A stretch of 64,000 bases of DNA, taken from assembly GCA_002269645.1 (NCBI GenBank), contig NIVC01000958.1, positions 124,001 to 188,000 of the forward strand, read 5' to 3'. Both the position numbers and the translations under genes were made by a program. Positions 30,417-56,391 of this stretch are shown one piece after another (positions within the stretch are counted from its first letter, which is position 1; each line of letters begins with the position of its first letter). The notes below the pieces were generated by a model. The model saw only the letters and a list, made by a program, of their open reading frames with translations, did no database searches and was not told where the DNA came from. Source of the stretch: Macrostomum lignano (taxonomy: Eukaryota).

Positions 30417-30709
30417 AGTAGAAGGCATGAGGGGGCTTTTGGGACAAAATTTTTCACATCCTCCATAATCCCATTAAATCCATCTATATTATCCCCAACA
30501 GAATCAGAAAAAAAGGGGGGTCGCACTTGCTCCAAAAACTTTGAACGTAATCCCATTAAATCCATCCATATTATCCCCATCAGAATCAGAAAAAAAGGGG
30601 GGTCGCACCTGCTCACAAAACCTCCTCCATAATCCCATTAAATCCATCCATATTATCCCCGACAGAATCTTGAAAAAGGGGAGGGGTCGATAATCGTATT
30701 AAATCCATC
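30417..30709 (+). repeat. Polinton left TIR, outer part (with ~84-bp subrepeats)
   Basis: Reverse complement of ~58690-59008; 23-bp deletion relative to the right TIR near 30690. Confidence 0.95.
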
Positions 30710-31675
30710 TGTTGTGACCTGTGTCACAGTGCTCCCCTGGTGCAAGTGCACTTTGATAGTTGTTGACTTTGGTAGTTGATTATTGTTACCCCCCCCCCCC
30801 GGCTCAAGCCAGTCTGGAGCTATGAGCCCTTTGGCTGAGCCTCTGCTCTCTTTCTCTCTCTCTCTCGCCTTGGCTGTTTAGCCCTTTGGCTAGCCGTGCT
30901 GATTGGCTGGGCCTCTGCTCTCTCTCCCTCTCCCTGGCCGTGCGCGCTTCCACCCTCCCCTCGCCGCAGCCAATCAGCTGTCAATCAGCTCCATTGTTTA
31001 AGCCCTTTCTCCCCCCCCTTGTTTGCGCCCCTGCCCCTTTTTACTCGTTATTTAAGGCGACGCTCAGACCCCGCCCCTTTTCTCACCGTGCCTGCGCCCA
31101 TTTGCGCCCACCGCGATAAATAAACGAACGTGACCAGCGATCAGCCGTAAAGACGGTCTCTTACTGCGAAGACTCAATTTATTGCAATCGATCGGCCTTC
31201 CCGTGTATGAGTGCTATAATCGACCCGGCCCGGTAAGCTGTCGAGACAATTGCCTGTGTTCCTCGGGGTCGCTCTCCTGATCTCTCACTCTCTCACTCTC
31301 TCCTCAGTCTGACTCACCAGGCTGTCGAGTGGCCGACCGCCCGCAGCCCTCTCTCTCTTCCTTGACTCACCAGGCTGTCGAGTGGCCGCCCGCCCACAGC
31401 CCTCTCTCTTTTCCTTGACTCACCAGGCTGTCGAGTGGCCGACCGCCCGCAGCCCTCTCTCTCTTCCTTGACTCACCAGGCTGTCGAGTGGCCGCCCGCC
31501 CACAGCCGCCCCTCCCCTCTCTCTCGACTTCTCAACCTTGACCTCCCCCCGAAGTGTCCGTACGCCTCGGGGTCGCCGATCGAGCTCGTAAGCCCTGGGC
31601 AGTCCAGTACCCGAACCCCGACACCGCTACCCGTCGCCCAACCCGGCCGTGCCAGCGAGGAAGGGGGATACAACA
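30710..31675 (+). repeat. Gypsy 5' LTR (966 bp)
   Basis: TGTTG...CAACA; four ~55-bp internal repeats (CTCACCAGGCTGTCGAGTGGCCG...) at ~31310-31510. Confidence 0.96.
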
Positions 31676-31676
31676 T

Positions 31677-31694
31677 TGGCGCCCGAACAGGGAC
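31677..31694 (+). promoter_or_regulatory. Primer-binding site for tRNA-Lys(UUU)
   Basis: TGGCGCCCGAACAGGGAC immediately after the LTR; this is the canonical 18-nt tRNA-Lys3 PBS. Confidence 0.93.
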
Positions 31695-31718
31695 TGCTCA
31701 GTTTGCTTGTGAGCTGTC

Positions 31719-32699
31719 ATGGCGAATGTGGACGAACTGATTCGGCTGCTAGCCGAGCGTCTGCGAGCGGATGGACCAGCCCAGCCACCGAGACTCCCGA
31801 AGCCCGTGAAGTACACGTCAAGCATGAATTTTCGACTCTGGCTGCGCTCTTTCAACGCTTATTGCGACTCCGCCGAGATTGACGAGGAGCATCGCCGCGA
31901 GCACTTGATGAGCATGCTGGATCTCGCTACGGCGTACGCTGCGGTCGATAATCTGAACCTGCCGGGACCCGACGATCCTGTGGATCCGCTGGACTACGAG
32001 GGATTCACCGCCCGGTTGGAGGCTCGCTTCTCCCGGTACCGGACAGAGCAGGACAGCAAGGTCGAGCTAAAAACCCGAGATCAGAAGGATGGCGAGTCGT
32101 TGGAGGCCTACGCAGATGCTCTCCTTGAACTGGTGCGCTGTGCCTACCCGGCGGCAACTGCCGAGCTGCAGGACGACCTCGCGAAGGATCGCTTCATGCA
32201 AGGGGTGAGACTCTCCGACCTCCAGCGAGAGAAGCTCTACCTGCAGCAGCCCGAAGGTCTGGTGGCAGCACAACGCGCGGTGAGGCAGCTCGAGGCGGCG
32301 TCCAAGGCGGCGAAGGGACCGAGATCGGCTGGAGCAACTGGCAGCGGCCACCGAGGAGTCTTCGTGGTGAGCGGCGCGGCGGAATCTGTGCCTCGGGAGG
32401 ATGGAGCCTACTCCCAAGAAAAGGACAAAGAGCTCGAGGAGTTGAAGAAACTGGTGAGGCAGCTTCAAGGCAAAGTGGTTCAGCTCGAGTCGCTGAGAGC
32501 GGAACCGCATAGCAGCGCCGCAGCTCGACCGACCGACTCCGACGAAGGCGACCATCAGAAGCCTCGACGAACGGGAGGAATTCGCTGCTTCTTCTGCAAC
32601 AAGCCAGGGCACATCGCGACTAACTGCCCAACCCGTCAGCAACAGGGAAACGGCAAGGGGAACTTCCGCAGGGGCGAGGGAGTTCCGCCGAGACAGTAG
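31719..32699 (+). CDS. gag: Gypsy Gag with CCHC zinc knuckle
   Basis: CFFCNKPGHIATNC; QKDGESLEAYADAL (Q-x-x-x-E-S motif). Confidence 0.92.
   Translation: MANVDELIRLLAERLRADGPAQPPRLPKPVKYTSSMNFRLWLRSFNAYCDSAEIDEEHRREHLMSMLDLATAYAAVDNLNLPGPDDPVDPLDYEGFTARLEARFSRYRTEQDSKVELKTRDQKDGESLEAYADALLELVRCAYPAATAELQDDLAKDRFMQGVRLSDLQREKLYLQQPEGLVAAQRAVRQLEAASKAAKGPRSAGATGSGHRGVFVVSGAAESVPREDGAYSQEKDKELEELKKLVRQLQGKVVQLESLRAEPHSSAAARPTDSDEGDHQKPRRTGGIRCFFCNKPGHIATNCPTRQQQGNGKGNFRRGEGVPPRQ
32645..32686 (+). promoter_or_regulatory. Predicted -1 ribosomal frameshift signal (G GGA AAC + 7-nt spacer + 9-bp hairpin)
   Basis: Heptamer in gag frame at 32645-32651; stem 32659-32667 / 32678-32686; the pol (-1) frame is open from here to the protease. 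Confidence 0.8.
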
Positions 32700-32803
32700 A
32701 GGCCCCAACCCGAGACGAAGATGCAGCCCCGGAGCGACGTGCAGCAGGATGTCCGGCGGACTGCTCAAGAGATAGAGATCAACCTGCAACAGCTTTTAAT
32801 CCC

Positions 32804-34204
32804 GTGTCAATCTACGTGTCGGTAAAAATTGGCGAGATTGAGTTGCCGTGTCTGTTGGATTCGGGCTCGGTCATGTCGCTGGTGAACGAGAGGACCTGGC
32901 GGCAGTTGAGCAAGTCGGTTCGAGTTGAACTCAGCCCTTCGGAAACCCACCTGATCTCAGCGAACGGAACTCCCATGAATGTGTTAGGATGCGCGTCGCT
33001 TCCCCTACAGTTCGGATCAGAAACTTTACAGACGCCAATTGCGGTGGTCCAAGGGGTCGGCTACGAACTGTTGCTAGGCACCGACTTCTTACGCCGCCAC
33101 CGGTGCCAAATCGATTTCGCCGGAGGAGTTTTCCGCGTGAACGGTTCACGTGTGCCAATCCGAGAGACCAAGCACAAACCAGTCGTCTGCCGGTTGTACC
33201 TGAACGAAAACTTGATCATTCCGGCCAATCACGAACGGACCGTCTCAGCCAGGATTCGGAGAACAGCGACACAGAATTCCGGAGTGCTCGGCGTCGCCGA
33301 ACCAGACGAAAAACTGAAGAGCGATGAGAGACCAATGCTAGCCAGGAGCGTCTGCCTCATCCAGCAGGGCAACACCCTACCAGTTCACTTCGCGAATGTC
33401 ACGGACTCCGAGCTGCGGCTGCGGAAGGGAGCTGTCATCGGCTGGTTTCGACCATCAGATCCGGCTCAAGAGGTTCTGGTAGCCAGCATCGAAGAGCAAG
33501 CGTCGGTTTTACGACCCAGCTGCGATCCATGGGACCCAGAGGCGGCACTGAACCAGCACGGCTCCAAGCAGCTCACGGGGGCAGACAAAGCGAGTTTCCT
33601 AAGATTGGTGAATCGATACGCAGATGTTTTCGCAGAGAGTACAGCGCGCCTCGGGACGACGGACATCGTGCAGCATGAAATTGAGACCACCGGAACAGCC
33701 GTAAAACAGCCTCCGCGACGGCTACCGCCACATTGGCGCGGCGAAGTCGACCGACAAATCGACGAGCTTTTGGCAACGAAGATGATTGAACCGACCCAAT
33801 CGCCGTGGAGTTCGCCAGTGGTCTGTGTCCGTAAAAAGAATGGGGAACTGCGACTGTGTGTCGACTACAGAGAGTTGAATCAACGAACTGTCAAGGACGC
33901 CATAGCAATCCCGCGTGTCGATGACGCACTTGAAGCGCTCGGAGGTGCGGCTGTATTTTCGACGCTCGACCTTTGCTCCGGCTATTGGCAAGTTAAGGTC
34001 AAAAGGGAGGATCAAGAAAAGACTGCTTTTGTCATTCCGCATCGGGGGCAATTCGCGTTCAAGGTGCTGCCCTTCGGATTGACCAATGCGCCGGCGACAT
34101 TCACAAGGTTGATGAATATGGTACTACACGACCTTCTGTGGAAAATGGCGCTCGTCTACATCGACGATATCATCATTGGTCCCGAACTGTCAGCGAGCAT
34201 CTAA
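32804..34204 (+). CDS. pol: Gypsy Pol part 1: aspartic protease + RT N-terminus (true start via frameshift at ~32650)
   Basis: LLDSGS, SPWSSPVVCV, RLCVDYR, LDLCSGYWQV, LPFGL, YIDD. Confidence 0.92.
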   Translation: MSIYVSVKIGEIELPCLLDSGSVMSLVNERTWRQLSKSVRVELSPSETHLISANGTPMNVLGCASLPLQFGSETLQTPIAVVQGVGYELLLGTDFLRRHRCQIDFAGGVFRVNGSRVPIRETKHKPVVCRLYLNENLIIPANHERTVSARIRRTATQNSGVLGVAEPDEKLKSDERPMLARSVCLIQQGNTLPVHFANVTDSELRLRKGAVIGWFRPSDPAQEVLVASIEEQASVLRPSCDPWDPEAALNQHGSKQLTGADKASFLRLVNRYADVFAESTARLGTTDIVQHEIETTGTAVKQPPRRLPPHWRGEVDRQIDELLATKMIEPTQSPWSSPVVCVRKKNGELRLCVDYRELNQRTVKDAIAIPRVDDALEALGGAAVFSTLDLCSGYWQVKVKREDQEKTAFVIPHRGQFAFKVLPFGLTNAPATFTRLMNMVLHDLLWKMALVYIDDIIIGPELSASI

Positions 34205-36621
34205 CGAATCTCGAGGCGGTATTCCAGCGCCTGCGCGCAGCCAACTTGAGGCTAAAGCCATCTAAGTGCAGATTCCTGGCCGATGAGGTCAAATTCCTTG
34301 GCCACGTCGTGTCAAAGGACGGAATCGATGTCGACCCGGAGAAGATCAAGGAAGTCCGTGACTGGAGCATTCCAAGAAATGCAAAAGACCTTCAGTCGTT
34401 CCTGGGTCTGGCTGGTTACTACCGAAACTTCATACCAGAATTCTCGATAGTCGCTGCACCACTTTTTGATCTGACAAAGAAAGACAAGCCGTTCAGTTGG
34501 AGAGAGGAACACGATGAGGCCTTCAAAAAGCTGAAAGAAGAATTGACCGGTTGCCGCGTGATGGCCTACCCGAACTTCGACCCCACGGCTGGTGAGTTCA
34601 TCTTGGATACCGATGGAAGTACCCGACAGGGTCTCGGAGCAGTCTTGTCGCAGGTACAAGAAGACGGGTCAGAGCGGGTTATTGCGTACGGGAGTCGGCG
34701 TCTGCAAGGGGCCGAATTCAACTATTGCACGACACGAATCGAGCTCCTGGCGCTGGTGACATTCGCAGAGAGGTTCCGGTACTATCTACTTGGCCGGAGG
34801 TTCCGGGTGCGCACCGACCACGCAAGTCTGCAGTGGCTCCGAAGTATGAGGCAGCCGGAAGGCCAGTTGGCTCGGTGGATGGAGAGGTTGGCGCCATTCG
34901 ACTTCGCAGTGGAGCATCGGCCAGGGGCGCGTCATCAGAATGCGGACGCGCTGTCACGCAAGCCGCCGCGACGACATCCCGAAATGGATAACTGCCCGTC
35001 GTGCCGGACTGATGACCTCCCCGGGGTCAGGGTAACGACGCTGCTCGGGTTGCTCAGCCGAGATGAGCTGGCAGCAGCACAAGCTGTGGACAACGACATC
35101 GCTCCAGTTTACCAGTCGATGCACGCCGGCCGAGCAAACGAAGAGCCACCTCGGGGTGCGTCACCAACGACCCGAGCCATCTGGGCACAAAAGCCTCGGC
35201 TGGAAATTGTGGACAACACCCTCGTCATCAAGGATCTGGGACGTCACCCACCGCGGGCTGTTCTCCCGAAGAAATTGATCCCCGACGCTCTGCAGACGCT
35301 GCACTCTGGACCAGGAGGTGGACACTTCGGCGTAGCAAAGACTCTGGAGAAAGTCAGGAACCGATTCTGGAGACCCGGCTTGAAGCGAGAGGTCGAGGAG
35401 TTTGTGCGAAGGTGTGACGACTGTAACCGGAGCAAGCCCGGGATGCGGCGGAAGGCCCCATTGGAGCCGATTCCCAGCAGCCATGTGTTTGAAAGAGTGA
35501 TGGTGGATTTGATTGGACCACTGCCAACCAGCGTCCGAGGCAACAAATACATACTGACGATGCAGGACGCGTTCAGTAAGTGGCCAGTGGCAGTACCGGT
35601 GCCAGATCAGACGGCCAGCACCTGTGCAAGGGCAATGCTCGAGGAGTGGGTCTGTCACTACGGAGCCCCAGGGACAATCCACTCGGATCAGGGAGCCAAT
35701 TTCGAGTCGCAATTGATCGGCCAGCTGTGCGAAAGTCTGAATATCCGAAAGACGCGTACGACCGCCTATCACCCCTCTGGAAACGGCCAAGTGGAAAGCT
35801 TCAATAAGACGCTGACTGCAGTGATCCGGGCGCACCTGGTGAAGGAGCCGGATCAGAGGCGGTGGGACGAATTCGTTGCCCCGGCGCTCATGGCGTATCG
35901 CTCCAGTGTGCACCGCGGCACCGGCTACTCACCCTTCTTCCTTCTGCATGGTCGCGAGATGTCTCTGCCAGTTGACTTGGGAGTGGCGCGCCCACTGGAC
36001 ATCGAACCGTACTGCGAGGAAGTCCAGAACCTGCGGGAGACGCTCGTGGAAGCCCATCGGGTGGTGCGTGAGAGAATAACGTCATATCAACGAGTGCAGA
36101 AAGACTGGTACGACCGGAAGGTGAAGGGTCGAGAATTCGTGGCTGGCGACGAGGTGTTCGTCTACAACCCCGTGTTGAAGGCCGGTGCCAAAGCGAAGCT
36201 CCACTCACCCTGGACCGGACCTGCCGTAGTTCTCGAGAAGCTGTCGGAGACGCGCTATAGGATTCGACAGGAAGGTCGACGGAAGCCGATCAAAGTGGTG
36301 CACTTTAACAACCTCCTGCCTCGGTACCGGAAGTACCCGGTCGACGGCACCGGTGGCCCTCGGCGTCCTGCACCAAGGAGGTACCACCCAGGTCCTGCTC
36401 AAGAGACGGAATCCGTCAGGGAGGACTCGCAGGAATCGGACGATGAGGATGAGGAGCGATGGTGGCGACATTCCGGGCGGGTTCGAGAGGAGGGAGAACC
36501 AATGGATGTGCAGCAGCCAGGAGTGCAGCCGCAGCCGGAAGCGCCAGTTGAAGTCATCGAAGGTCGACCCCAGAGGGATCGAAGGGTTCCGCAGCGTTAT
36601 GGAACGCCCGTTTATTATTAA
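34138..36621 (+). CDS. pol: Gypsy Pol part 2: RT C-terminus, RNase H, integrase; separated from part 1 by a 1-nt deletion at ~34185
   Basis: FLGHVV, TDGS, ELLAL, TDHASL, HHCC zinc finger, DLIGP/SDQG/VESFN, GPY/F-like PWTGP; restoring one T gives YIDDIIIWSRT. Confidence 0.92.
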   Translation: MENGARLHRRYHHWSRTVSEHLTNLEAVFQRLRAANLRLKPSKCRFLADEVKFLGHVVSKDGIDVDPEKIKEVRDWSIPRNAKDLQSFLGLAGYYRNFIPEFSIVAAPLFDLTKKDKPFSWREEHDEAFKKLKEELTGCRVMAYPNFDPTAGEFILDTDGSTRQGLGAVLSQVQEDGSERVIAYGSRRLQGAEFNYCTTRIELLALVTFAERFRYYLLGRRFRVRTDHASLQWLRSMRQPEGQLARWMERLAPFDFAVEHRPGARHQNADALSRKPPRRHPEMDNCPSCRTDDLPGVRVTTLLGLLSRDELAAAQAVDNDIAPVYQSMHAGRANEEPPRGASPTTRAIWAQKPRLEIVDNTLVIKDLGRHPPRAVLPKKLIPDALQTLHSGPGGGHFGVAKTLEKVRNRFWRPGLKREVEEFVRRCDDCNRSKPGMRRKAPLEPIPSSHVFERVMVDLIGPLPTSVRGNKYILTMQDAFSKWPVAVPVPDQTASTCARAMLEEWVCHYGAPGTIHSDQGANFESQLIGQLCESLNIRKTRTTAYHPSGNGQVESFNKTLTAVIRAHLVKEPDQRRWDEFVAPALMAYRSSVHRGTGYSPFFLLHGREMSLPVDLGVARPLDIEPYCEEVQNLRETLVEAHRVVRERITSYQRVQKDWYDRKVKGREFVAGDEVFVYNPVLKAGAKAKLHSPWTGPAVVLEKLSETRYRIRQEGRRKPIKVVHFNNLLPRYRKYPVDGTGGPRRPAPRRYHPGPAQETESVREDSQESDDEDEERWWRHSGRVREEGEPMDVQQPGVQPQPEAPVEVIEGRPQRDRRVPQRYGTPVYY

Positions 36622-36648
36622 GAGCGGACGTGAGTGCGTGCGTAATGT

Positions 36649-36880
36649 CGCGTCATCTCCTGCGTCATAAATAATTGGTTCGAAGCATCATCCGCGTCAT
36701 CTCCTGCGTCATAAATAATTGGTTCGAAGCATCATCCGCGTCATCCCCTGCGTCATAAATAAGTGGTTCGAAGCATCATTCGCGTCATCTCCTGCGTCAT
36801 AAATAATTGGTTCGAAGCATCATCCGCGTCATCACCTGCGTCATCAACATTTGGTTCGAAGCATCGTCTGCGTCATCACC
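36649..36880 (+). repeat. Five 44-bp tandem units between pol and the J-domain ORF
   Basis: CGCGTCATCTCCTGCGTCATAAATAATTGGTTCGAAGCATCATC at 36649, 36693, 36737, 36781, 36825. Confidence 0.95.
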
Positions 36881-37086
36881 CGCGTTATTGAAAACTGGGC
36901 TCGTGTTATTGCCTCTGCTTCACAAACAAAAATATATATTTCTCCTCTTAAGGCCCGTCAGTGGAGGTCCCACCTGCCCAACCCTGCCATCAGGGATGAA
37001 GGATCGGCGCCCCAAAGAGGCTCGAAGGAACCACTGCCCTGCTCTCAAAAGTGAGTCGTGGTTGTTGCAGGCACTGCTTTCCGGGC

Positions 37087-37968
37087 ATGGACCTCTACGC
37101 CGAGTTTGGTGTCAGCCCCTTCGCGACGGAGGAGGAGCTGCGACGTGCGTACCGCCGTGAGAGCCTGCGACGGCACCCCGACAAGTGTGGACCCGGTGGA
37201 ACGGAGAATTTCCAGAGGCTGCAGCATGCGAGTGCGGTCCTGCTGTGTCCGTTTCGACGAGCGCTGTACGACCGGTTCGGGCAGGATGCCGTTAGCAACC
37301 CGCTCGAGTGCGCCCGGTATTTTGTCCCGCCGGACGGGATGTGCGTCCCGGAGGAGTTTGTCGTAACGATTGAAGACGAAACAGAAGAGTCAGACGAGGA
37401 CAGGGAGTCGGAAGGAAGCGAGCGTGGTGGTTGCGGCGGCGAGGAGACTGCTCAGAGCTGCTGTGAAATCACGCAGTCAGAGGAAGAAGAGCTCTTGAAT
37501 GAATTCGACGGCGAAACTTCGATGTCAGAAGACGAACCGGAGCTCGTCATCGACCAACGGGAGTCGCCAGCGTGGCTGATGAGGAGCGAGCCGAGTACCG
37601 AGGTGGAATACACCTGGAGCGGGGAGGCAACGCAGCGAAGAGCTCGAATCCGGTCGGAGCTTCGGCACGCTTTGTTGTCGGGGAGTCCAGCTGCGATGTT
37701 CCGGCTTTTGACTGAGATGGTGGGATTGTGCGGCAGCGAGCGGCTGGATCATCGACGCGAAATCGCCGAGCTTTTGGCTCAGACTGTCAAGTTCATTCTC
37801 CGTGACATCAGCGCCAAGTGTCGGGGTCATGCTCGGCGTGTCTGGCGGCGGCCTGCCTTCAAGCGAAGCACTCGGTTCGTCATGAGTGTTGCGATCCCTC
37901 AGTTTGAACAAATCGACGGAGGACGCGTGTTGGGGTTGTTGCGCCGGGCGGCGGAGGTGGCGGTCTAG
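37087..37968 (+). CDS. DnaJ/J-domain protein (~293 aa from ATG 37087) in the env position of the Gypsy element
   Basis: DLYAEFGV...EELRRAYRRESLRRHPDK...FQRLQHASAVL...RRALYDRFG is a canonical J domain with HPD at 37174-37182; then an acidic linker and a helical C-terminus; intronless. Confidence 0.88.
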   Translation: MDLYAEFGVSPFATEEELRRAYRRESLRRHPDKCGPGGTENFQRLQHASAVLLCPFRRALYDRFGQDAVSNPLECARYFVPPDGMCVPEEFVVTIEDETEESDEDRESEGSERGGCGGEETAQSCCEITQSEEEELLNEFDGETSMSEDEPELVIDQRESPAWLMRSEPSTEVEYTWSGEATQRRARIRSELRHALLSGSPAAMFRLLTEMVGLCGSERLDHRREIAELLAQTVKFILRDISAKCRGHARRVWRRPAFKRSTRFVMSVAIPQFEQIDGGRVLGLLRRAAEVAV

Positions 37969-38094
37969 GGGGTTCTGGGGCAGGATGCCAGGGCGGGCAA
38001 GAGACCTTCACTCCTTCATTTCATCCCATCTCTCCTCTGATCGTCGTTGTGATCCCTCTGTTTGGCACTGGGAGCGGCCCCGAAGGAAGGGCAG

Positions 38095-38605
38095 GGAACA
38101 CTCTCGGCCATGCCCGGCATTCTCGGCCGCTGCCCGGCATTCTCGGCCGCTGTCCGGCATTCTCGGCCATGCCAGGCGTTCTCGGCCGCTGCCCGGCATT
38201 CTCGGCCGCTGCCCGGCATTCTCGGTCGCTGTCCGGCATTCTCGGCCATGCCCGGCGTTCTCGGTCACTGCCCGGCATTCTCGGCCGCTGCCCGGCATTC
38301 TCGGCCGCTGTCCGGCATTCTCGGCCATGCCAGGCGTTCTCGGCCGCTGCCCGGCATTCTCGGCCGCTGCCCGGCATTCTCGGCCGCTGCCCGGCATTCT
38401 CGGCCGCTGTCCGGCATTCTCGGCCGCTGCCAGGCGTTCTCGGCCGCTGCCCGGCATTCTCGGCCGCTGCCCGGCATTCTCGGTCGCTGTCCGGCATTCT
38501 CGGCCATGCCCGGCGTTTTCGGCCACAGTCCGGCATTCTCGGCCGTGCCCGGTGTTCTCGGCCTGTCCGACATCCTCGGCCCCTGTCCTGCGCTCTCGGC
38601 CGCTG
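38095..38605. repeat. GC-rich ~20-bp tandem repeat (CTCGGCCGCTGCCCGGCATT)n in the Gypsy 3' UTR
   Basis: Directly visible, ~25 degenerate units. Confidence 0.93.
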
Positions 38606-38697
38606 CCTGACACTCTTGGTCTCTTTCATTCAGTTTCATTTCATTACATTTTTTTTTCATTTTCATTCAGTCAAAGCGCGTCGTTTTCTTTTTTTTT

Positions 38698-38708
38698 AGG
38701 GGGGAGGG
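38698..38708 (+). promoter_or_regulatory. Polypurine tract
   Basis: AGGGGGGAGGG after a T-run, directly before the 3' LTR. Confidence 0.85.
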
Positions 38709-39671
38709 TGTTGTGACCTGTGTCACAGTGCTCCCCTGGTGCAAGTGCACTTTGATAGTTGTTGACTTTGGTAGTTGATTATTGTTACCCCCCCCCCGGC
38801 TCAAGCCAGTCTGGAGCTATGAGCCCTTTGGCTGAGCCTCTGCTCTCTTTCTCTCTCTCTCTCGCCTTGGCTGTTTAGCCCTTTGGCTAGCCGTGCTGAT
38901 TGGCTGGGCCTCTGCTCTCTCTCCCTCTCCCTGGCCGTGCGCGCTTCCACCCTCCCCTCGCCGCAGCCAATCAGCTGTCAATCAGCTCCATTGTTTAAGC
39001 CCTTTCTCCCCCCCCCTTGTTTGCGCCCCTGCCCCTTTTTACTCGTTATTTAAGGCGACGCTCAGACCCCGCCCCTTTTCTCACCGTGCCTGCGCCCATT
39101 TGCGCCCACCGCGATAAATAAACGAACGTGACCAGCGATCAGCCGTAAAGACGGTCTCTTACTGCGAAGACTCAATTTATTGCAATCGATCGGCCTTCCC
39201 GTGTATGAGTGCTATAATCGACCCGGCCCGGTAAGCTGTCGAGACAATTGCCTGTGTTCCTCGGGGTCGCTCTCCTGATCTCTCTCTCTCTCACTCTCTC
39301 CTCAGTCTGACTCACCAGGCTGTCGAGTGGCCGACCGCCCGCAGCCCTCTCTCTCTTCCTTGACTCACCAGGCTGTCGAGTGGCCGCCCGCCCACAGCCC
39401 TCTCTCTTTTCCTTGACTCACCAGGCTGTCGAGTGGCCGACCGCCCGCAGCCCTCTCTCTTCCTTGACTCACCAGGCTGTCGAGTGGCCGCCCGCCCACA
39501 GCCGCCCCTCCCCTCTCTCTCGACTTCTCAACCTTGACCTCCCCCCGAAGTGTCCGTACGCCTCGGGGTCGCCGATCGAGCTCGTAAGCCCTGGGCAGTC
39601 CAGTACCCGAACCCCGACACCGCTACCCGTCGCCCAACCCGGCCGTGCCAGCGAGGGAGGGGGATACAACA
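38709..39671 (+). repeat. Gypsy 3' LTR (963 bp)
   Basis: Differs from the 5' LTR only by homopolymer/dinucleotide length changes and a few substitutions. Confidence 0.96.
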
Positions 39672-39675
39672 CATC

Positions 39676-39915
39676 CATATTATCCCTGACAGAATCAGAG
39701 CATAACATGTGTCCACTAACACCTGTTATGCTCACTGACACTGACATAATCCACTAACATCCACCCAGAAACAATCAGAAAATAATCTGCATTCTTCTCC
39801 CCACATTCAATCCGCAACGTGCTACCACATCCCTAAGACTTTAAATCCCCAAACCCTGGGTCCTTACCCTTTAAAAAATCTAAATTTTTAATAAAAATGT
39901 TTCCAGTTGTCTCTC
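39676..39915 (+). repeat. Polinton left TIR, inner part
   Basis: Reverse complement of 58453-~58690. Confidence 0.93.
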
Positions 39916-40962: not shown

Positions 40963-41826
40963 TCACATTCTCTCAATGATTAACGTCAATACAAACTCTT
41001 CACCGTTGAAATCAACACCCATCCCATCTTCAGTCTCAAACTGTAGCACAATCTCGTGAATCTCCTTATTACTCAATACAACTCTTTTCACTGGATTTGG
41101 TTTCTCTACCACCATCTGTCCTCCAGCAACAGAGTTGGAGATGTTGTACAAAATATTCGTTCGCTTTCCCTTAAATACCCAATCAAGACTGAGATTGCTT
41201 CTGATTAGAATATTCAAATCCTTTACAATGTCTGCAATATTGGGTGCTAAGAACAAACCGCTTACACTTTCCCGGACCATTCTAACAGTCCCCGATGCTT
41301 GAGTGGCGGTCCGCGCCGCGGATTCTGCCTTATAAACTTTCTTCTCGAATCCCAGTTCCCTATACCAAGTGTCATCTTTAAACTCAACCTCCGCATCTTT
41401 GTGAACTTGCATGACCACTCTCATTACAGTGAGATCATAGGTTAGTTTGACAGGGAACAGTTTCTTCTCTGGCTTACTCGCATCAGGTGTCTCAAAATGG
41501 CCTCTCTTAGTAAAGACATTTTCTAGAAAGTTATTGTAGGTGTCCACACTTTGCGTGCTCACATGGAATACCACAGGGTCTGCTGCTGCACCTTTCCATT
41601 TGTAATAAAACTTATTATTTGCTGCCATCACATTGGGAACGTTTGACCAACCAGTAAAGTCGTTAAGATAGACATGGTAATTAGCACCTGGATCCAGGCG
41701 AATCGCCTGCTCTAATTTTTCAACAAATATCCCGTTTGAGTCATTAATTCGCCCATTTATTGTAATAGGAATGCTCTCCTTGGAGTGAGAAACAATATTA
41801 TTTAGTCTTTCAGCAATCGCTTCCAT
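40963..41826 (-). CDS. Polinton minor capsid protein (penton)
   Basis: Adjacent to MCP; NVPNV...NNKFYY N-terminal and EIVLQFETEDGMGVDFNGEEFVLTL C-terminal pattern typical of Polinton pentons. Confidence 0.75.
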   Translation of the reverse strand: MEAIAERLNNIVSHSKESIPITINGRINDSNGIFVEKLEQAIRLDPGANYHVYLNDFTGWSNVPNVMAANNKFYYKWKGAAADPVVFHVSTQSVDTYNNFLENVFTKRGHFETPDASKPEKKLFPVKLTYDLTVMRVVMQVHKDAEVEFKDDTWYRELGFEKKVYKAESAARTATQASGTVRMVRESVSGLFLAPNIADIVKDLNILIRSNLSLDWVFKGKRTNILYNISNSVAGGQMVVEKPNPVKRVVLSNKEIHEIVLQFETEDGMGVDFNGEEFVLTLIIERM

Positions 41827-41849
41827 TTTTTTTTCACATAAAAAAATAT

Positions 41850-43136
41850 TTAAACTTTACTGGATGAATTGTTGATCATGTTAAGCTTCACCTTCCTCTC
41901 AAATGCATAGATAATGTACAAATCCACAGGTGTTGCGGCAGTCCTCTCAATGTTAGTCACGATATTCACAGGGCTGTTATCAGTAGGCATTTGTCTGGCA
42001 GACACATCAGCGCCAAACATCGGATATAGAGTTCCATATTGAAGAGCAGTGATAGCAATTCCATTGTTCTCTTTCACAGCCAAGTCGACCAACTCGTTGT
42101 AAAATTTGCTAATCTTGTTCTGACTGAAATCTCCATTTTGTGGCAGTGCAGGGTAAAGATTATCACTGATTTCATGCTGAATGGACCGCACGTCTCCATG
42201 CATGTAGCGTATAATGCTATTTGGGTTTCTCATGTTAATAATAATATACCTTGGATTGCTGCATGATCCCTCTTTAATGCAGATGTTTGTTCTAGTTTCG
42301 TTTCGCTCATCTCGACACATGTAGGCCGTGTATGCAACATCAATGTCCTTCTCTATTGCCTTAAGATAATCCGCTTTTAGTGCAGTCTTTGGCTCAATGA
42401 CTTCCAAATACAGCTCGATTCCGGTTAGCTTCACAGCCATCCCAGTGTGGTCCGCCCCAGTCCACAACACTCTACTGCGATCATCTCTAGTCAGTCTAAA
42501 TGTGTAGCTAAAGTTACTAGTCAGTCGATTAAATGTATTACAGAATCCACTCATGAATCGCAATGGTACAAATACATCAACAGACCGATACTGCGGGTTC
42601 TTAGCAGCATCATCAGCACCTTGCAATGCATAGTTGTATCTCTTCTTCCTATTTTTATAGCCACTGTCATTGATATCTCCTTCTTTTTCGTCTGCAATAA
42701 AACCCGCACCACTTCCCAATTGAATAGAATCAGGATTCTCGATCAAACAATGAGCGTCATAGACAATTCCAAAGTTGGCGATTCGCTCCAACTCAGTGCT
42801 CCCATTTGATACACTAAACTCCTTGAACATGTACGCCCAAAAGTTACTAATCAGAGCCACATCCGCATCATGCTTGTCAACGTTAGCACGAGCCGCATCC
42901 GCACCACCCTTTGTCTTGAATTGAAATGTCATATGGAAGCCGCTCTTAAGATTGTGCACACTAACCAAAGACGAACATCCATTGTATGTAAATGTCAGTG
43001 TTTGGCCAGGACCAAGATTAGTTTCATTCTGATTTTCCTGACTGGGAACTCTTACCTGAGTCGCTTTGATTGTGCTATCATCACTCAAAATAGGCTTGTT
43101 AATTTTGTAGAAAACTGGTGTCAGTGGGTCGTTCAT
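41850..43136 (-). CDS. Polinton major capsid protein (double jelly roll/hexon-like)
   Basis: 428 aa; LISNFWAYMF..., FVPLRFMSGFC, FRLTR, IELYL, YPMFGADVS pattern recalled for Polinton MCPs; context. Confidence 0.8.
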   Translation of the reverse strand: MNDPLTPVFYKINKPILSDDSTIKATQVRVPSQENQNETNLGPGQTLTFTYNGCSSLVSVHNLKSGFHMTFQFKTKGGADAARANVDKHDADVALISNFWAYMFKEFSVSNGSTELERIANFGIVYDAHCLIENPDSIQLGSGAGFIADEKEGDINDSGYKNRKKRYNYALQGADDAAKNPQYRSVDVFVPLRFMSGFCNTFNRLTSNFSYTFRLTRDDRSRVLWTGADHTGMAVKLTGIELYLEVIEPKTALKADYLKAIEKDIDVAYTAYMCRDERNETRTNICIKEGSCSNPRYIIINMRNPNSIIRYMHGDVRSIQHEISDNLYPALPQNGDFSQNKISKFYNELVDLAVKENNGIAITALQYGTLYPMFGADVSARQMPTDNSPVNIVTNIERTAATPVDLYIIYAFERKVKLNMINNSSSKV

Positions 43137-43166
43137 TTTTTAACTAAAAATAAAATAAAATAAGAA

Positions 43167-44399
43167 ATGAAGCGAAAAAGTACACAGCAGATATCTGAAT
43201 TGGAGAAGCTAGCACAAGCAGAGAAACGAGTTACCGGGCTAATAAATAAGGAGCAACAATCCTACAATGAGTTTGTCCAAGCAGCCACAGAGTTTCATAA
43301 GCCCGGGTATGGAGAAGCTAAGAAAAATATTGATCAGGTCAAAGAAACTATCGACGAAATACAGGAAACCCAGGTGCAAAAGGCTTTGGGCAAAATTCCA
43401 GAAGCACCACAGATACAGCCGCAACCACAGACACAACCGCAACCACAACAATCACAACAACAATCACAACCACAACAACAGCAACTAAAAGTGACAGATA
43501 ACATTTTTGGACCAGTAGAGCGTGTAGAACATGATGGGAAATATGTATTTGGAATAAGTATGTGGAGAAAAAATATTTATAATGAACCAGTGGAATATTA
43601 TATCGACATAAATAAGAAACATATTTCTGTTGTCAAAGGCTCGGAAACTAAGAGCATTCCTTTCACAGAAACCTTACTGACTTTTATGACCAAGAACCAA
43701 GAGAGAATCTCGGAAAAGCAGCTAAAGAACTACAAAGATCTAGTGACTTTTTCTCTTGCAAGAGATATAGAAATACTAAAGGCCCCAGAAGTTCTGAAAC
43801 ACATGTACAATGGCGGTGTCAACCTGACTAAATTCAAAAAGTACAAGCACTTTAAACAATGGTTCGATTTGACAGATCAGGCGGAAGTCATAAAATATCT
43901 AGAACAACAACCACAACCACAACAACAACAACGACCGCCACAACAGCAACATTTCACAGAAGAACAAGTACTCAGGCAACTGGATAATGCAGATCCGACT
44001 CAAGTAGCTAAATATAAAAATGATCACCCAGATGCCTGGCAACTCTTAGAATAACACTCCCCAGATCGAATGAATAGAATCAATCAAAGAGTTTTCACAC
44101 CTCAACAAAGACAGGCACCACATGACAGTTCCATCTCTGAAAGTGAACAGTCTTTTGCATCACCTCCCCAGCAGCTACAAGCCCAACCAACTCCACAACC
44201 TCAAGACCAACCGCCCTCAACTGGAAAAGGAATTTCTGAAATCTACAAGCGAGTAGCGGTTCTTCTAGGAGCGGCAAAGACTGGAATGAAAGACGAGAAT
44301 AGAAAAGAATTTGTCAACATCCTGGACAAAATGCTTGAGAGAAAATACATCGATAAGAGGGCGAGAGAGCTTCTGCTTTCGCGGTTCAACAAAAAATAA
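43167..44399 (+). pseudogene. ~410-aa Gln-rich Polinton protein split by a CAA>TAA change at 44052 (ORFs 43167-44054 + 44070-44399)
   Basis: Both ORFs share a frame; the duplicated copy has CAA at 48797-48799; C-terminal GKG...LLGAAKTG...EF..ILD.ML...YI motif. Confidence 0.75.
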
Positions 44400-44415
44400 T
44401 TTATTTCAAGTAAAA

Positions 44416-44802
44416 ATGCCTATTATTTTTGAGAAAGACGTGGACAAATATTATGACAAAGAGGAACTTAATCTTATTAAACGCGGATCTGGACTTTTCC
44501 CTGCAGGCCACTATCCAAGAAAAGAACGCTCTGGGAATGGCCTTGCTGATTTGATCGCTCAGGGGGCCAAGATTTTTAAGGTCATTGGAGAGAACAAAGA
44601 GAACATCAAGAACGTTGCCGAAGCGGCTGGCAGTGTAGCCACAGCAGCCAAAAAGATAAAGGATACTGTAACACCTAAACAAGAGATTCAACCGCCGGCC
44701 CCGCTGGCTCCATTGGCCCCAAATCCAGACAGTGTGGACCCTGCAGTCTATGAGAAGATGAGAGCTAGCATTAAAAAAGGAAGTGGTTTCAAATTTGACT
44801 AA
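44416..44802 (+). CDS. Small putative virion protein (128 aa; GxG motifs, amphipathic helix); copy 1
   Basis: ATG in AAAAATG context at 44416; RGSGLF, SGNGLADLIAQGAKIFKVI, KGSGF; function inferred. Confidence 0.6.
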   Translation: MPIIFEKDVDKYYDKEELNLIKRGSGLFPAGHYPRKERSGNGLADLIAQGAKIFKVIGENKENIKNVAEAAGSVATAAKKIKDTVTPKQEIQPPAPLAPLAPNPDSVDPAVYEKMRASIKKGSGFKFD

Positions 44803-44830
44803 AGGGTACTTTCCGAGGGTACAAGACTAG

Positions 44831-44976
44831 TCCCGAAATGACACATCTAAGTCCCAAAATGACACATTTAAGTCCCGAAATGACACATCTAAGTCCCAAA
44901 ATGACACATCTAAGTCCCAAAATGACACATCTAAGTCCCAAAACGACACATTCAAGTCCCGAAATGACACATCTTC
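44831..44976. repeat. 21-bp tandem repeat upstream of the ATPase (7 units here; 6 units in the second copy at ~49576-49700)
   Basis: GTCCC(G/A)AAATGACACATCTAA units visible. Confidence 0.93.
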
Positions 44977-45017
44977 TAAATGATTTATTATTTAATTTTT
45001 TTTCAATCATAGAAAAA

Positions 45018-45818
45018 ATGGACTTCTCAAACGACTTCAATCCTCACTGGACGCGTAATCAGATTAAGTTTTCTCATCACGAGTCAATCCCGAGTCACTT
45101 CAGATGCATTGTTGTTGGTTCATCAGGTTCAGGTAAAACATTCAGAGTCTTTAACATGCTTCTTAGACCTGGCTTTATCGACTATGACACTCTGCACATC
45201 TACTCTCCCACACTGTATCAAGATGAGTATAAAATGCTGATTTCTGGATTGCAAAACAAACTGAACAAAGAGGACATTATTCAATGTTTTAATAACCAAA
45301 TGAGCCTTCCCAGTAACCCTGAAATTGTAGCTGCTGAATATGCAAAGCACCTCAAAGACAATGAAAAATGGCAGAACATTAAAGTGTTCACCTATGGAGA
45401 TCCGCAGGTGGATCCAAAGACCAAACTTCTACCCCATCCAGATGAGCTAGAAAAAGGGAGAAAGCATTTGATCGTCTTTGATGATTGTATGACAGGCCCA
45501 CAGAAGCAGATAGAAAACTATTTTACAAGAGGACGACATAACAATTGTAATGTAATTTACATTGCACAGAATTGGTTCGAGCTCCCGAACAAAACAATTC
45601 GTGGGAACTGCAATCTGATTCTCCTGTTTCCAACCATTCCACAGGACAGGCTAAAAAGATTTTACAATGAGGTCATTGCGCCTGCCTATTTTATAAATCC
45701 AACAAAAAACTCAAACAGAAAGATTTCACAGGAGGAATTCGTTAATCTTTGCTATGACAAGTGGAATCAGCCTTACCAGTTTGAGATTATCAGCAAAGAA
45801 AAAAGAACTGTAATTTAA
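45018..45818 (+). CDS. A32/FtsK-HerA-family DNA-packaging ATPase (intact copy)
   Basis: Walker A GSSGSGKT, Walker B LIVFDD, RGRHNN, YIAQ; likely start ATG 45018. Confidence 0.92.
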   Translation: MDFSNDFNPHWTRNQIKFSHHESIPSHFRCIVVGSSGSGKTFRVFNMLLRPGFIDYDTLHIYSPTLYQDEYKMLISGLQNKLNKEDIIQCFNNQMSLPSNPEIVAAEYAKHLKDNEKWQNIKVFTYGDPQVDPKTKLLPHPDELEKGRKHLIVFDDCMTGPQKQIENYFTRGRHNNCNVIYIAQNWFELPNKTIRGNCNLILLFPTIPQDRLKRFYNEVIAPAYFINPTKNSNRKISQEEFVNLCYDKWNQPYQFEIISKEKRTVI

Positions 45819-45834
45819 AATTTGCTATTAAAAG

Positions 45835-46578
45835 ATGTCTATTAATTTTGCAGGTGAATCCATTTCTGGAAACAGCGCTCTTACATCAGCTCAAATATCC
45901 ATCCTTGACAGGCGATATATCAACAGCGACGAAAAGATCCCAGAGATCAAACTGAATAAAAACAGACTGAAACAATTAGAACGTTCCATGCACCAGTTGC
46001 AAATGAACATGGAAGATCTCAGGCTTAAAGTAGCTAGACAGAAGTTTGACAGTGATAAGCTTTATGTGCCGTTGTTAAACGCAACTAATGAGCTAAGGTC
46101 AGAAATAACTTCGATAGTCTCGCTAATCAACGGCTTGAGACCATCAGTTAATCTTCTGGGAAATTCCATTGATAGACGGATGCGTATTCTTGAAGGAGGA
46201 GTTTTCACAAACACAGCTAAAGTGAATAATTTAGAAGAGTTCATGAACCAGTCAACAGCATTGCATGATAGAATTAAAGAAAACGTCGCAACCAACACAG
46301 TTAAAGTGAGGAATTTAGAAGAGTTCATGAACCAGTCAACAGCGTTGCATGATAGAATTAAAGAAAAACTTGAAGCATTAAAGAGAAACGATGTATCACA
46401 CAGTAGCTATCTAAACGGAATGTATAGCTCTTGGGGTAAAATAATAAGGAGGCTTAATCGTCTGGAGAGAACACTCAATCTTCGTGACATTGCTATTGAT
46501 GAAGCAGAATCTGCTGCTCGTCCGGTCATTTCTGCAGATGAAATTATCAAAAAGAAAACAGATCTTTCAACTGGGTAG
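45835..46578 (+). CDS. Coiled-coil Polinton protein with a 26-aa internal duplication
   Basis: Heptad-rich; NLEEFMNQSTALHDRIKE twice. Confidence 0.65.
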   Translation: MSINFAGESISGNSALTSAQISILDRRYINSDEKIPEIKLNKNRLKQLERSMHQLQMNMEDLRLKVARQKFDSDKLYVPLLNATNELRSEITSIVSLINGLRPSVNLLGNSIDRRMRILEGGVFTNTAKVNNLEEFMNQSTALHDRIKENVATNTVKVRNLEEFMNQSTALHDRIKEKLEALKRNDVSHSSYLNGMYSSWGKIIRRLNRLERTLNLRDIAIDEAESAARPVISADEIIKKKTDLSTG

Positions 46579-46614
46579 TTTTATATATTTTTTTATTTTT
46601 TTCTAGGGAAAAAA

Positions 46615-47341
46615 ATGGCCCAACAAAATTCTCTATACGATCAGTCTCAATATGCTGAACCTAAAATACCGACAGCACCAAACCCAATGGCACCGAATTC
46701 GAACACACAAAGCCTGGCACCGAATATGAATGCACCCCAATATGAGCAACAAAAACTCTACCCCGTCATTACTTGTAACTCTCAACAGTTTCGACTGGTG
46801 GAGATTCAAAAAATGCGCGATGATCTTGAAAAAAATATTTTCCGCAACACAAAGAAAATTAAGCGCTATAATAGCCACTGTAAATTTTTTGACTACAGCA
46901 ATATGATTCTAGGATCTGTGTCTGTTCTAACTGGGTCTGCTGCAGCTGTCTCAGTGTTGCCAGCCATCACAGTCCCAATCGCAATCCCGCTCGGCTCTGT
47001 GGGTGCTGCATGTGGACTTATTTCAACAATTACTGGAGCATTAGCGCGAAACAGGCGAAAAAAAACTAAAGCAGCTACAGGAGAAGCAAGTAAAAGAGAA
47101 AGGGGTGCACACTTCAATCATAGGGTACATTTCAAGGGCAATCGAGGATAAGTTCATTTCAGAGGACGAGTTCAAAACCATTCAGGATCTTTATGAACAA
47201 TCAATTCGAATGAACTTGAACATGGTCGGTACTGATGACATGAGTCAGCTGAGAAATGAACTCGAGAAAGTTCTTCAACATTATGCGGAAAGAAAGTCGG
47301 CAAGAAATTCGGCAAGAAGGACAACGAGAAATGCACAATGA
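46615..47341 (+). pseudogene. Coiled-coil + hydrophobic-hairpin membrane protein, frameshifted at an A8 run (~47058-47065)
   Basis: QQFRLVEIQ...; two hydrophobic segments; copy 2 has A7 (51243-51249) which reads RRKKLKQ...ISRAIEDKFISEDEF in frame. Confidence 0.7.
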
Positions 47342-47345
47342 ACCC

Positions 47346-47747
47346 TTATGAAACACAGGTACGAATAATTTCCTTGTAGGTGTTTCGTGTTTTGGTCATT
47401 GCATACAAAACAGTCATGCACAGCTCACCGCAAATATCACTGCTAAGACCTTGTAGAATAAAGTCTGAGCGATAAATTTTTTTATTCTTTTTTCCCTTCA
47501 TATAATTTCTTAGCTCTTCTGGTACTGCCGTCCCATAGCTATCGAAGTAATAACACTTGTGCTTGCGATCGGGATCAATCACCCAGCAAACCCAATGAGA
47601 TCCTGGTTTATCGGTGGTGTCAAAGTTCATGATGCCGCATTCTTTTCTTAGAGGAAAATCAGGCAGAGTGTCCCTCATAAATATTCCTCTAAAGTTTGGG
47701 ATTTCCAGTTCGTTAGCCAAATCTTCGAGAAAGTTATTTGTCGTCAT
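47346..47747 (-). CDS. Adenain-like cysteine maturation protease, copy 1
   Basis: GSHWVCW, YFDSYG, Q...ICGELC (His-Asp-Cys triad); likely start MTTNN. Confidence 0.9.
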   Translation of the reverse strand: MTTNNFLEDLANELEIPNFRGIFMRDTLPDFPLRKECGIMNFDTTDKPGSHWVCWVIDPDRKHKCYYFDSYGTAVPEELRNYMKGKKNKKIYRSDFILQGLSSDICGELCMTVLYAMTKTRNTYKEIIRTCVS

Positions 47748-47810
47748 TTTTATGTCATTTTTATGAGTTTTAATACACTTTCTCTTAAACCTAAACCCAA
47801 CCTCCACCTC

Positions 47811-48777
47811 CTAAACCCAACTTCCACCTCCTAAGCCTAATCTCCAATGCCCGAACGGTAGACTGTTGATATTGTCATCAAAAATGAATCGCTTGTTATC
47901 TGCACCTGACAGTCCAATCTTCTTTTGCTGAATTGTGTGAATAATATGGTTTTTAGATTGTAGCTTTGAGAACTCATGTGATGTCTTTTTGTTGCAATTC
48001 AAGGCGTCTCTGTATTCAGTTTCATTAATTTCCTTTCTAACCAGACGTTTCGGAATTACCTTTGATTTTTTGATTGGGTCTGACGACTCACATTTTACAA
48101 AATAGGACTTTGCTCTCAACCCAATGAATTCAGTGATTATGTCACCAGCAATCTCGTCCTTCATTTTCCCAATCACTTTCTTGTTAGTGGCGTCAAACAC
48201 TTGATCGCCATTCTGTGTCTTGCAAGATTCATCATACTCAGACAAGTCAAACAAATCTTTTTGCTGCAGCATGTCCTGATAAATGTCTTCTGTTTGAATG
48301 TCCATAATAAAACTGTCTGTTTCAGTGTACAAGAGTTTCATTTTATCCTTGTACTGCTGCTTCATGCCATAGAAGAACTGGTACATCAGACGTTTTGATT
48401 CATCGAGAACAGTGACACCTGTATAGATCGGCTTGCGCAGCGTCACCTTGGTTTTGTAAAATATGATCACACCTAAGTAGCTATTAAAGATATGGAGTTC
48501 TTTGAATGTTGGCTTTGACATATTTGCCTGAATAACAGCAGGCTCTGATGAGGTAACAAGTTTCAGGTTTGTTCTTTTCCGCTCATTCTCAAGAGTCTTA
48601 CCATAGACAGAGTTGTTGGCCAACTTAAAGAGGTTCTTGTCAAAGTTGTTGGTTGCTTTGGTCCTAAACTGGGTGTTCTTATCAATGTAGGGTTTCATCC
48701 AAGCTTCCTCTGTAAATGTAAGAGCCCTGTGAACTTTGGTGACCCTGCAACCAAGTGAGATAAAATACTGAAGCAGT
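47811..48777 (-). pseudogene. Duplicated 3' fragment of pPolB
   Basis: Near-identical to 51995-52961; truncated at junction 48777/48778; catalytic YTDTDS altered to YTETDS. Confidence 0.9.
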
Positions 48778-49160
48778 ATGCTGGCAACTCTTAGAACAAC
48801 ACTCCCCAGATCGAATGAATAGAATCAATCAAAGAGTTTTCACACCTCAACAAAGACAGGCACCACATGACAGTTCCATCTCTGAAAGTGAACAGTCTTT
48901 TGCATCACCTCCCCAGCAGCTACAAGCCCAACCAACTCCACAACCTCAAGACCAACCGCCCTCAACTGGAAAAGGAATTTCTGAAATCTACAAGCGAGTA
49001 GCGGTTCTTCTAGGAGCGGCAAAGACTGGAATGAAAGACGAGAATAGAAAAGAATTTGTCAACATCCTGGACAAAATGCTTGAGAGAAAATACATCGATA
49101 AGAGGGCGAGAGAGCTTCTGCTTTCGCGGTTCAACAAAAAATAATTTATTTCAAGTAAAA

Positions 49161-49547: not shown

Positions 49548-49741
49548 AGGGTACTTTCCGAGGGTACAAGACTAGTCCCGAAATGACACATCTAAGTCCC
49601 AAAATGACACATTTAAGTCCCGAAATGACACATCTAAGTCCCAAAATGACACATCTAAGTCCCAAAACGACACATTCAAGTCCCGAAATGACACATCTTC
49701 TAAATGATTTATTATTTAATTTTTTTTCAATCATAGAAAAA

Positions 49742-50542: not shown

Positions 50543-50558
50543 AATTTGCTATTAAAAG

Positions 50559-51525: not shown

Positions 51526-51529
51526 ACCC

Positions 51530-51931: not shown

Positions 51932-51994
51932 TTTTATGTCATTTTTATGAGTTTTAATAAACTTTCTCTTAAACCTAAACCCAACCTCCACCTC

Positions 51995-55864: not shown

Positions 55865-55913
55865 CCTGATAGAAAAGTTAAACTGTTTCTACATCCTATA
55901 AGTAGTGTTAGGT

Positions 55914-56375: not shown

Positions 56376-56391
56376 TTTTTATTTTAATATT

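Follow-up and report, generated by a model that had tools for sequence, protein, structure and literature searches.

Retrotransposons depend on host chaperones, and a gene in a Gypsy LTR retrotransposon of Macrostomum lignano raises the question of whether such an element may bring a co-chaperone of its own. The element lies at 30710-39671 of the window, as the whole stretch of 64,000 nucleotides analysed here is called, and an earlier note on this DNA had seen in it an intact J-domain gene between pol and the polypurine tract (PPT), the position in which retroviruses keep the envelope gene, and had proposed a retrotransposon lineage that encodes its own Hsp70 co-chaperone. The gene, ORF3, is an accessory third gene of a Gypsy element, a known kind of gene with a cargo that was not found described. 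That J domains are not known as standard Gypsy cargo, as the note had it, agrees with the literature searched, part of it available in extract and with Repbase, GyDB and subscription journals outside its scope, in which neither a J-domain-encoding retrotransposon nor a prior description of such a linkage was found.

Architecture of the element and its third gene

TG...CA LTR ends, a primer-binding site (PBS) that we take to be of the tRNA-Lys type, a PPT and a 4-bp target duplication are all present (Table 1), and gag is followed by protease, RT, RNase H and integrase (Pfam), the gene order of Ty3/Gypsy elements. Pfam gave no Chromo match in the RNase H-integrase (RH-IN) frame of the window, so the chromodomain at the integrase C-terminus that marks chromoviruses is not seen. 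The element is young, as had been claimed, its LTRs being identical at 960 of 962 aligned bases. The description of the J gene as intact holds for ORF3, which is open, but not for the copy as a whole, in which pol is frameshifted near 34.18 kb; this break is not general, given that three of nine other copies checked have a pol frame of more than 1300 codons. A search of 30600-39800 against Rfam gave no matches. Tandem arrays lie on both sides of ORF3 in the window, and B-type copies (L073, L071) have a similar array ahead of the PPT. Elsewhere in the window there is a Polinton/Maverick-like element at ~40963-57900, in which a block of ~4.2-4.7 kb is duplicated, and a LINE at 9285-12720 (endonuclease, RT, RNase H) that is split between two frames.

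Table 1. Positions of the features of the Gypsy element, its predicted transcript signals and the neighbouring Polinton/Maverick-like element in the window.
Feature	Position	Strand	Remark
Target-site duplication	30706..30709 (left copy), 39672-39675 (right copy)	.	4 bp
5' LTR	30710..31675	+	966 nt
Host spliced-leader exon copy in LTR	31144..31186	+	43 nt; leader's last two bases (its AUG) missing in window copy
Predicted coding mini-exon of ORF3	31207..31232	+	ATG, 8 codons + 2 nt
Predicted splice donor GTAAG	31233	+	directly after mini-exon
Primer-binding site	31677..31694	+	tRNA-Lys type (presumed)
gag	31719..32699	+	326 aa, CCHC knuckle (Pfam)
pol (protease, RT, RNase H, integrase)	32873..36621	+	frame opens slightly upstream of 32873
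44-nt tandem repeats, pol-ORF3 interval	36604..36942	.	repeat family D12
Predicted splice acceptor TTGCAG	37065..37070	+	16 nt before ATG
ORF3	37087..37968	+	293 aa; J domain, linker, C-terminal helical domain
J domain (aa 2-62) and clade-specific folded extension to ~aa 99	37090..37383	+	
Acidic linker, predicted disordered (aa 100-173)	37384..37605	+	chromodomain sits here in families I, K
C-terminal five-helix domain (aa 179-291)	37621..37959	+	basic Arg/Trp loop
20-nt tandem array, ORF3-PPT interval	38090..38647	.	repeat families D8 + D9
Polypurine tract	38698..38708	+	
3' LTR	38709..39671	+	963 nt
Double jelly-roll protein	41850-43136		Polinton/Maverick-like element
A32-like ATPase	44838-45818		Polinton/Maverick-like element
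Adenain protease	47346-47747		Polinton/Maverick-like element
Polymerase-like ORF	51995-54238		called from motifs; sole Pfam match endonuclease VII
Integrase	56392-57408		Polinton/Maverick-like element
PLA2-like ORF	57440-57889		Polinton/Maverick-like element

ORF3 has the place and length first noted for it, and it opens with the J domain that had been called textbook: Pfam DnaJ matches residues 2-62 (E 1.2e-12; 48.2 bits, the cut-off being 27.8), the HPD codons are at 37174-37182, the HPD falls between helices II and III of a J fold, and the model superposes on solved J domains at ~1-2 Å rmsd over some 65 residues, with a Foldseek E >0.001. In the AlphaFold model two confident domains flank a disordered linker, whose acidity, also noted before, amounts to a net charge of -14 and -13 per 40 residues. 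The C-terminal domain (residues 179-291) has a pLDDT of ~90 in this model and, in isolation, is modelled as a five-helix bundle (pLDDT 89, pTM 0.80); it is net basic, with a conserved Arg/Trp loop. The earlier note did not recognise this domain, and it is still without a convincing fold match: the best, AppA SCHIC (Z 8.1, rmsd 2.6, 81 aligned residues), is in a range common for helical bundles, Foldseek returned no match at E up to 0.001 in the PDB or a viral library, and the ESM Atlas gave no usable match, an absence that is uninformative. Host genes with this domain were not seen among the results of the own-genome and protein database searches.

The protein is not an envelope of the kind encoded by errantivirus ORF3, as the note had concluded, given that it begins with a J domain and that no transmembrane segment was found; the best 19-residue hydropathy is 1.09 in the window protein and 0.94-1.56 in all ten proteins tested. 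Nor does it resemble a class A or B DnaJ protein, since Pfam matches no G/F region, zinc finger or DnaJ_C in ORF3 and the linker is acidic; by architecture it would be a class C J protein, and its counterpart in family N, introduced below, would be a J-like protein without HPD. An LxCxE motif is absent or not conserved in the six genome families tested, and PxVxL is likewise not conserved. The ORF had been described as intronless, and its frame is indeed open, from 37000 and upstream of the ATG at 37087, but the true start is predicted in a small spliced exon of the LTR, so that 37087 may not be the first codon.

Distribution of ORF3 among related elements

ORF3 is not restricted to the window copy. 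Searching the own genome with it gave at least 152 matches, and 80 regions surrounding ORF3 and RT matches, each no longer than 10 kb, were collected; the family letters used here are labels of this report, the window element being family A. Among the 25 best places, 14 copies are full-length, unbroken and 99-100% identical, and many other copies are broken. The flanks of the 11 family A copies inspected are all different, with a 4-bp duplication in seven of the eight showing both ends. A J or J-like domain with its clade-specific extension, joined to the C-terminal domain, is common to all 12 families at a between-family ORF3 identity of ~30% (the RH-IN regions of distant families are ~45-50% identical to that of the window), and ORF3 lies behind pol and ahead of the 3' LTR in families A, C, D, D2, E1, E2, H, I and N and in copies of B and K. 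In a tree of RT-RNase H (34 representative rows out of 58 usable), all ORF3 carriers fall inside one clade of 27 rows with a support of 97/97, and the linkage of J gene and pol, which the note had asked to be checked, is therefore kept across the families of one RT clade within this assembly. The C3 copies have no RT nearby and were left out of this tree, and its outgroups come only from the 150 best RT matches and two chance neighbours.

In the same tree, which contains no reference Osvaldo or Gmr1 elements, the clade adjoins elements of the L082 type. The 338-nt LTR start and heat-shock element of L082 fit family Mlig-id38 of the study that describes a Gmr1/Osvaldo cluster in M. lignano (PMC12801592); L082 belongs to the nearest sampled group outside the clade. 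The whole text of that study has no match for DnaJ, J-domain, Hsp40, chaperone or ORF, and the DnaJ matches in its supplements are rows of a differential-expression gene table that are not tied to elements. Of the ORF3 clade members, those tested have no canonical heat-shock element in their LTRs. The PBS differs among families of the clade, with at least four types, which suggests that the primer tRNA may have been switched repeatedly. One locus (L045) has an internal tandem duplication of pol-ORF3 and another (L064) a head-to-tail arrangement sharing an LTR, either natural or an artefact of assembly.

The gene is absent from some elements. None of the four complete elements of the neighbouring group has an ORF of at least 110 residues between pol and the LTR. 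Inside the clade, family M (three copies with both LTRs, 98.9-100% identical) is a recent insertion without ORF3, of which tblastn with the N protein found no remnant in the three copies, and a complete family B copy (L073, LTRs 99.7%), likewise inserted recently, and L074 also lack it. At the place that ORF3 takes in the sister family N, the M copies (L079, L080, L085) have a sense frame of up to ~250 codons, with no Pfam match and no detected homology to ORF3. An action of ORF3 in trans would explain how lineages without it can still move.

Variation within the gene is of a similar kind. In 10 of the 12 families at least one copy has an intact HPD; C3, of which one copy was examined, has HTD in its place and also a stop, and family N (L084, L087, L088) has lost HPD from one open 571-codon frame with J-like, C-terminal and degenerate TatD domains. 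As the first 265 residues of the N protein are identical in at least 13 copies despite this loss, stimulation of Hsp70 is not needed throughout the clade. In families I and K a chromodomain is inserted (Pfam E 1.4e-12 and 8.9e-07), with HP1/CBX1, MPP8 and CDY as its best solved matches; of the three positions that we take to be the cage aromatics, K has all and I two. A TatD-like domain is appended in E1, E2 and N. When that of N is aligned with 2gzx, other residues stand in place of the His that follows the fourth strand and of the Glu/Asp in the ETD motif, and the metal ligands of E1 and E2, read by eye, are replaced likewise; these residues presumably bind metal, and the domain, which fails the residue pattern of an active nuclease, would be degenerate in all three families. 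On the sequences compared, the constant part of ORF3 is the C-terminal domain and not HPD, the J domain, chromodomain and TatD-like domain being modules around it.

Seven further loci with J matches (L049-L052, L054, L060, L106) have neither pol nor the C-terminal domain and are read, from their sequence, as ordinary host DnaJ genes. A J-domain tree against host DNAJ proteins (76 columns, host labels assigned here) gives no resolution, and the element rows need two changes in it; a single origin of the element J domain would be compatible with this tree but is not demonstrated by it.

Beyond this assembly, an HMMER search of 1.84 billion representative proteins found the same layout in the unnamed proteins P0003 and P0005 (sequencing-run contigs) and P0007 (metagenome), a fragment with the C-terminal domain (P0128, metagenome) and a chromodomain form of ORF3 (P0156). 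Given that the best identity of P0005 and P0007 to any sequence scored in the own genome assembly is 46-47%, an ORF3-type gene exists in other genomes. Database proteins that match families A, D, H and I, by contrast, carry the name M. lignano. From a loci search for outside relatives 80 loci were kept, and their matches are almost all limited to the J domain.

Selection on ORF3

The earlier note had named dN/dS below 1 as a check on its proposal and neutral decay in other family members as its refutation. By Nei-Gojobori counts, confined to codons from windows that are at least 50% identical, whole-ORF3 dN/dS is 0.08-0.34 in 12 of 13 comparisons (bootstrap upper bounds 0.16-0.76), the remaining one being saturated, and neutral decay is not what is seen. 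Between the window family and B the value is 0.17-0.20 for ORF3, 0.12 for its J part and 0.07 for pol, deep pairs having a dS of 1.2-2.3, near saturation. Close pairs within C (0.25), H (0.23) and N (0.29-0.34) avoid both saturation and the identity-window problem, and resemble pol values where these were measured (C 0.29). Within family A, 13 of the 14 full copies together show 6 synonymous and 6 non-synonymous variants, too few for a test. That ORF3 is a selected part of the clade can be regarded as nearly certain. In the D/D2 (L053/L036) and I/K (L092, L056/L048) pairs dS is ~0.15-0.18 in pol against ~1.2 in ORF3, which suggests that recombination may have swapped ORF3 between subfamilies.

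Predicted splicing and the spliced-leader copy

ORF3 is predicted to be expressed from a spliced, env-like mRNA that joins a donor in the LTR to the acceptor at 37070. The phase of the mini-exon fits this acceptor, and in 10 of 12 families a YTNYAG acceptor is present no more than 22 nt from the ORF3 start, as against 3.8% of upstream windows; a database gene model (P0275) enters the ORF at the same site. Three families, B, E1 and E2, have no ATG of their own, and in each the LTR donor would supply an in-phase start: B, whose three J-bearing copies lack the ATG, has a homologous phase-2 mini-exon in its LTR, and in E1 and E2 the LTR GTAAG donor ends in the base that completes a start codon at the junction. 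A start codon made by splicing is known from gypsy env. The donor alone is weak evidence, given that GT[AG]AG donors also occur in three of four outgroup LTR leaders; the acceptor motif of ORF3 fits the cis and trans acceptor motifs of the host, as far as these are given in the part of PMC8629364 that was available.

The ORF3 junction is absent from the joints in the contig sets of four runs presumed to be RNA, contigs being a form of data that drops rare forms, and one contig reads unspliced through the LTR donor. In runs X2 and X3 a single piece over 36836-38085 covers ORF3, which is not proof of transcription, given that none of the runs with matches is recorded as RNA and that the RNA nature of X2, X3, X11 and X14 is guessed. 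Spliced retro-copies are not evident among the partial loci, and the ORF3 gene ids were not found in the one supplement of PMC5816591 that was available.

The LTR also holds a copy of the host's spliced-leader exon, identical over its 43 nt to the SL RNA gene locus L199 and matching 33 of 35 nt of the published leader; contig depth in its bin is 25,000-97,000. It lies just behind an AT-rich box and recurs at the same place in the 3' LTR. Copy L014 retains the leader complete to its AUG, which is in frame with the predicted ORF3 mini-exon, and no leader copy was found in the LTRs of other families (L031-L059). The simplest reading would be that trans-spliced element RNA was reverse-transcribed into the LTR. 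Two joints from 31186 were rejected as host leader-bearing transcripts, their sides being 20-22 letters long and their flanks unrelated.

Predicted docking to Hsp70

The J part of ORF3 (residues 1-100) was modelled by ESMFold2 with the host cytosolic Hsp70 (L113), ATP and Mg included. The score is 0.63 against 0.09 for the best of three controls, the runs agree in at least 90% of contacts, the partner pLDDT is 81-82, and HPD residues 30-33 are in the interface. In the calibration of the docking score, which is rough here as ligands rode along, 51 of 78 solved pairs and 2 of 108 mismatched ones came up to the mark, and among eukaryotes 39 of 65 solved and 2 of 126 mismatched ones did; a pass denotes likeness rather than binding, possibly drawn from the memory of the model, given that like complexes have already been solved. 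That the HPD-bearing members of the clade engage Hsp70 is highly probable. Of the proposal that a retrotransposon lineage encodes its own co-chaperone, a selected J-domain ORF3 throughout the clade stands, but HPD is not kept in all families.

Possible role of ORF3

The explanation that is favoured, although tentatively, is that ORF3 is a nuclear adaptor for Hsp70 on the chromatin or RNA of the element. Its product would be made from the spliced mRNA and, acting in trans, would deliver host Hsp70 to chromatin or RNA of the element itself; the basic five-helix domain would bind nucleic acid or nucleoprotein, with a methyl-lysine reader or a dead nuclease fold assisting it in some families, and Hsp70 would then strip or remodel host repressive or RNA-retaining complexes, with the result that the element is expressed. 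This is preferred to the alternatives for three reasons: first, the optional modules point to chromatin and nucleic acid; second, there is no membrane segment; third, the loss of ORF3 in active lineages fits an action in trans. The pointers to the nucleus are the chromodomain of I and K, the TatD-like domain of E1, E2 and N, and an acidic linker followed by a basic C-terminus. For the window family, which has neither chromodomain nor TatD-like domain, the nuclear reading is carried over from relatives, and binding of nucleic acid is argued from charge, given that the C-terminal domain has no fold match. Analogies to this explanation are offered by SUVH1/3-DnaJ1/2, which counter silencing (PMC12902148), and by Cer1 CERV, which is made by splicing and regulates unspliced RNA in the nucleus (PMC10309623), each source being available in part.

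On the main idea of the earlier note, the folding or assembly of Gag/RT particles, ORF3 would be a cytoplasmic co-chaperone through which Hsp70 folds Gag/Pol or assembles or uncoats particles. The intact HPD and the canonical docking model agree with this, J domains in 11 RNA virus families have been proposed to aid polyprotein folding or virion assembly (10.1101/2022.02.15.480533, in the part available), and supply in trans would also account for the losses of ORF3. However, this is rather unlikely: a chromodomain and a TatD-like domain make little sense in such a role, family N is spreading with HPD lost and its other domains retained, and close relatives without ORF3 assemble particles well enough for insertion.

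It is also conceivable that ORF3, as a competitor of host J proteins, sabotages the small-RNA defence, either diverting Hsp70 or turning it on PIWI/Argonaute complexes. Planarian DNAJA1 binds and stabilises the PIWI protein SMEDWI-2 (PMC11663942, a review available in part), and if ORF3 were a general suppressor, its benefit would be shared, and free riders such as lineages B and M could afford to lose it. Family N without HPD argues against it, as does the chromodomain, which suggests site-directed action, and the idea is improbable. So, to a slightly greater degree, is a role in which ORF3 travels with the pre-integration complex and tethers it to chromatin, Hsp70 disassembling the complex after integration. 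Chromodomains guide integration in chromoviruses and the chromodomain of I and K is HP1-like; however, the chromovirus chromodomain is fused to integrase, whereas here it is in a separate ORF and in only two of 12 families. That ORF3 is a captured fragment of a host DnaJ and a neutral passenger, as the many broken copies and the two lineages that lost the gene might suggest, is scarcely credible, given a dN/dS far below 1 in saturated and unsaturated pairs alike, frames that stay open at ~30% identity, conserved splice signals and the failure of the own-genome and protein database searches to find a host gene with the C-terminal domain.

Comparison with known systems

Closest in position are the GDSL and DEDDy ORF3s of bdelloid rotifers (PMC5408684), which share with the present gene a third sense ORF behind pol and family-specific gains and losses, and the AlkB-type ORF of orchids (PMC9289625), likewise a non-envelope ORF3 in a Ty3/Gypsy element; such ORF3s are described as separate units with expression from spliced messages (PMC5408684). 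The cargo of the present clade differs in consisting of a J domain and a five-helix domain with chromo or TatD-like additions, and the words 'DnaJ' and 'chaperone' do not occur in the available text of the rotifer paper. As regards the J domain, polyomavirus T antigens and the 11 RNA virus families (10.1101/2022.02.15.480533) are alike in that a mobile genome encodes its own HPD-bearing J domain for host Hsp70, but the viral J domains are part of a replication protein or polyprotein, whereas here the J domain opens a separate ORF3 in a retrotransposon. Cer1 CERV of C. elegans (PMC10309623) is also a Gypsy-type accessory protein in a trans-splicing animal, with a spliced mRNA and, for ORF3, predicted splicing here; CERV acts on unspliced element RNA in the nucleus, and no J domain is mentioned in the available text. 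In the plant SUVH1/3-DNAJ1/2 and MBD5/6-SILENZIO systems (PMC12902148, PMC8616336) a reader module is coupled to a J domain on silenced chromatin, and SILENZIO binds HSP70 (PMC8616336); these proteins are host-encoded, with reader and J domain separate, whereas in I and K both are in one element-encoded chain.

Taken at its widest, the favoured explanation would make ORF3 a modular, element-encoded counter-silencing machine, in which a new nucleic-acid-binding fold and swappable readers (chromodomain, dead TatD) aim host Hsp70 at silenced chromatin or RNA, and which would be a trans-acting shared good exploited by free-riding lineages and expressed through the cis- and trans-splicing signals of the host; this wider form is possible but doubtful. 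No earlier report was found of a retrotransposon that encodes its own Hsp70 co-chaperone, and the ORF3 genes of the clade sit in databases as ordinary host 'J domain-containing proteins'. The clade offers natural variants, some without HPD, some without the gene and others with an added chromodomain or TatD, in a flatworm that is open to RNAi and transgenesis, and it can therefore be tested directly which advantage the steering of Hsp70 gives a transposon and whether proteins dedicated to anti-silencing occur in animal retrotransposons.
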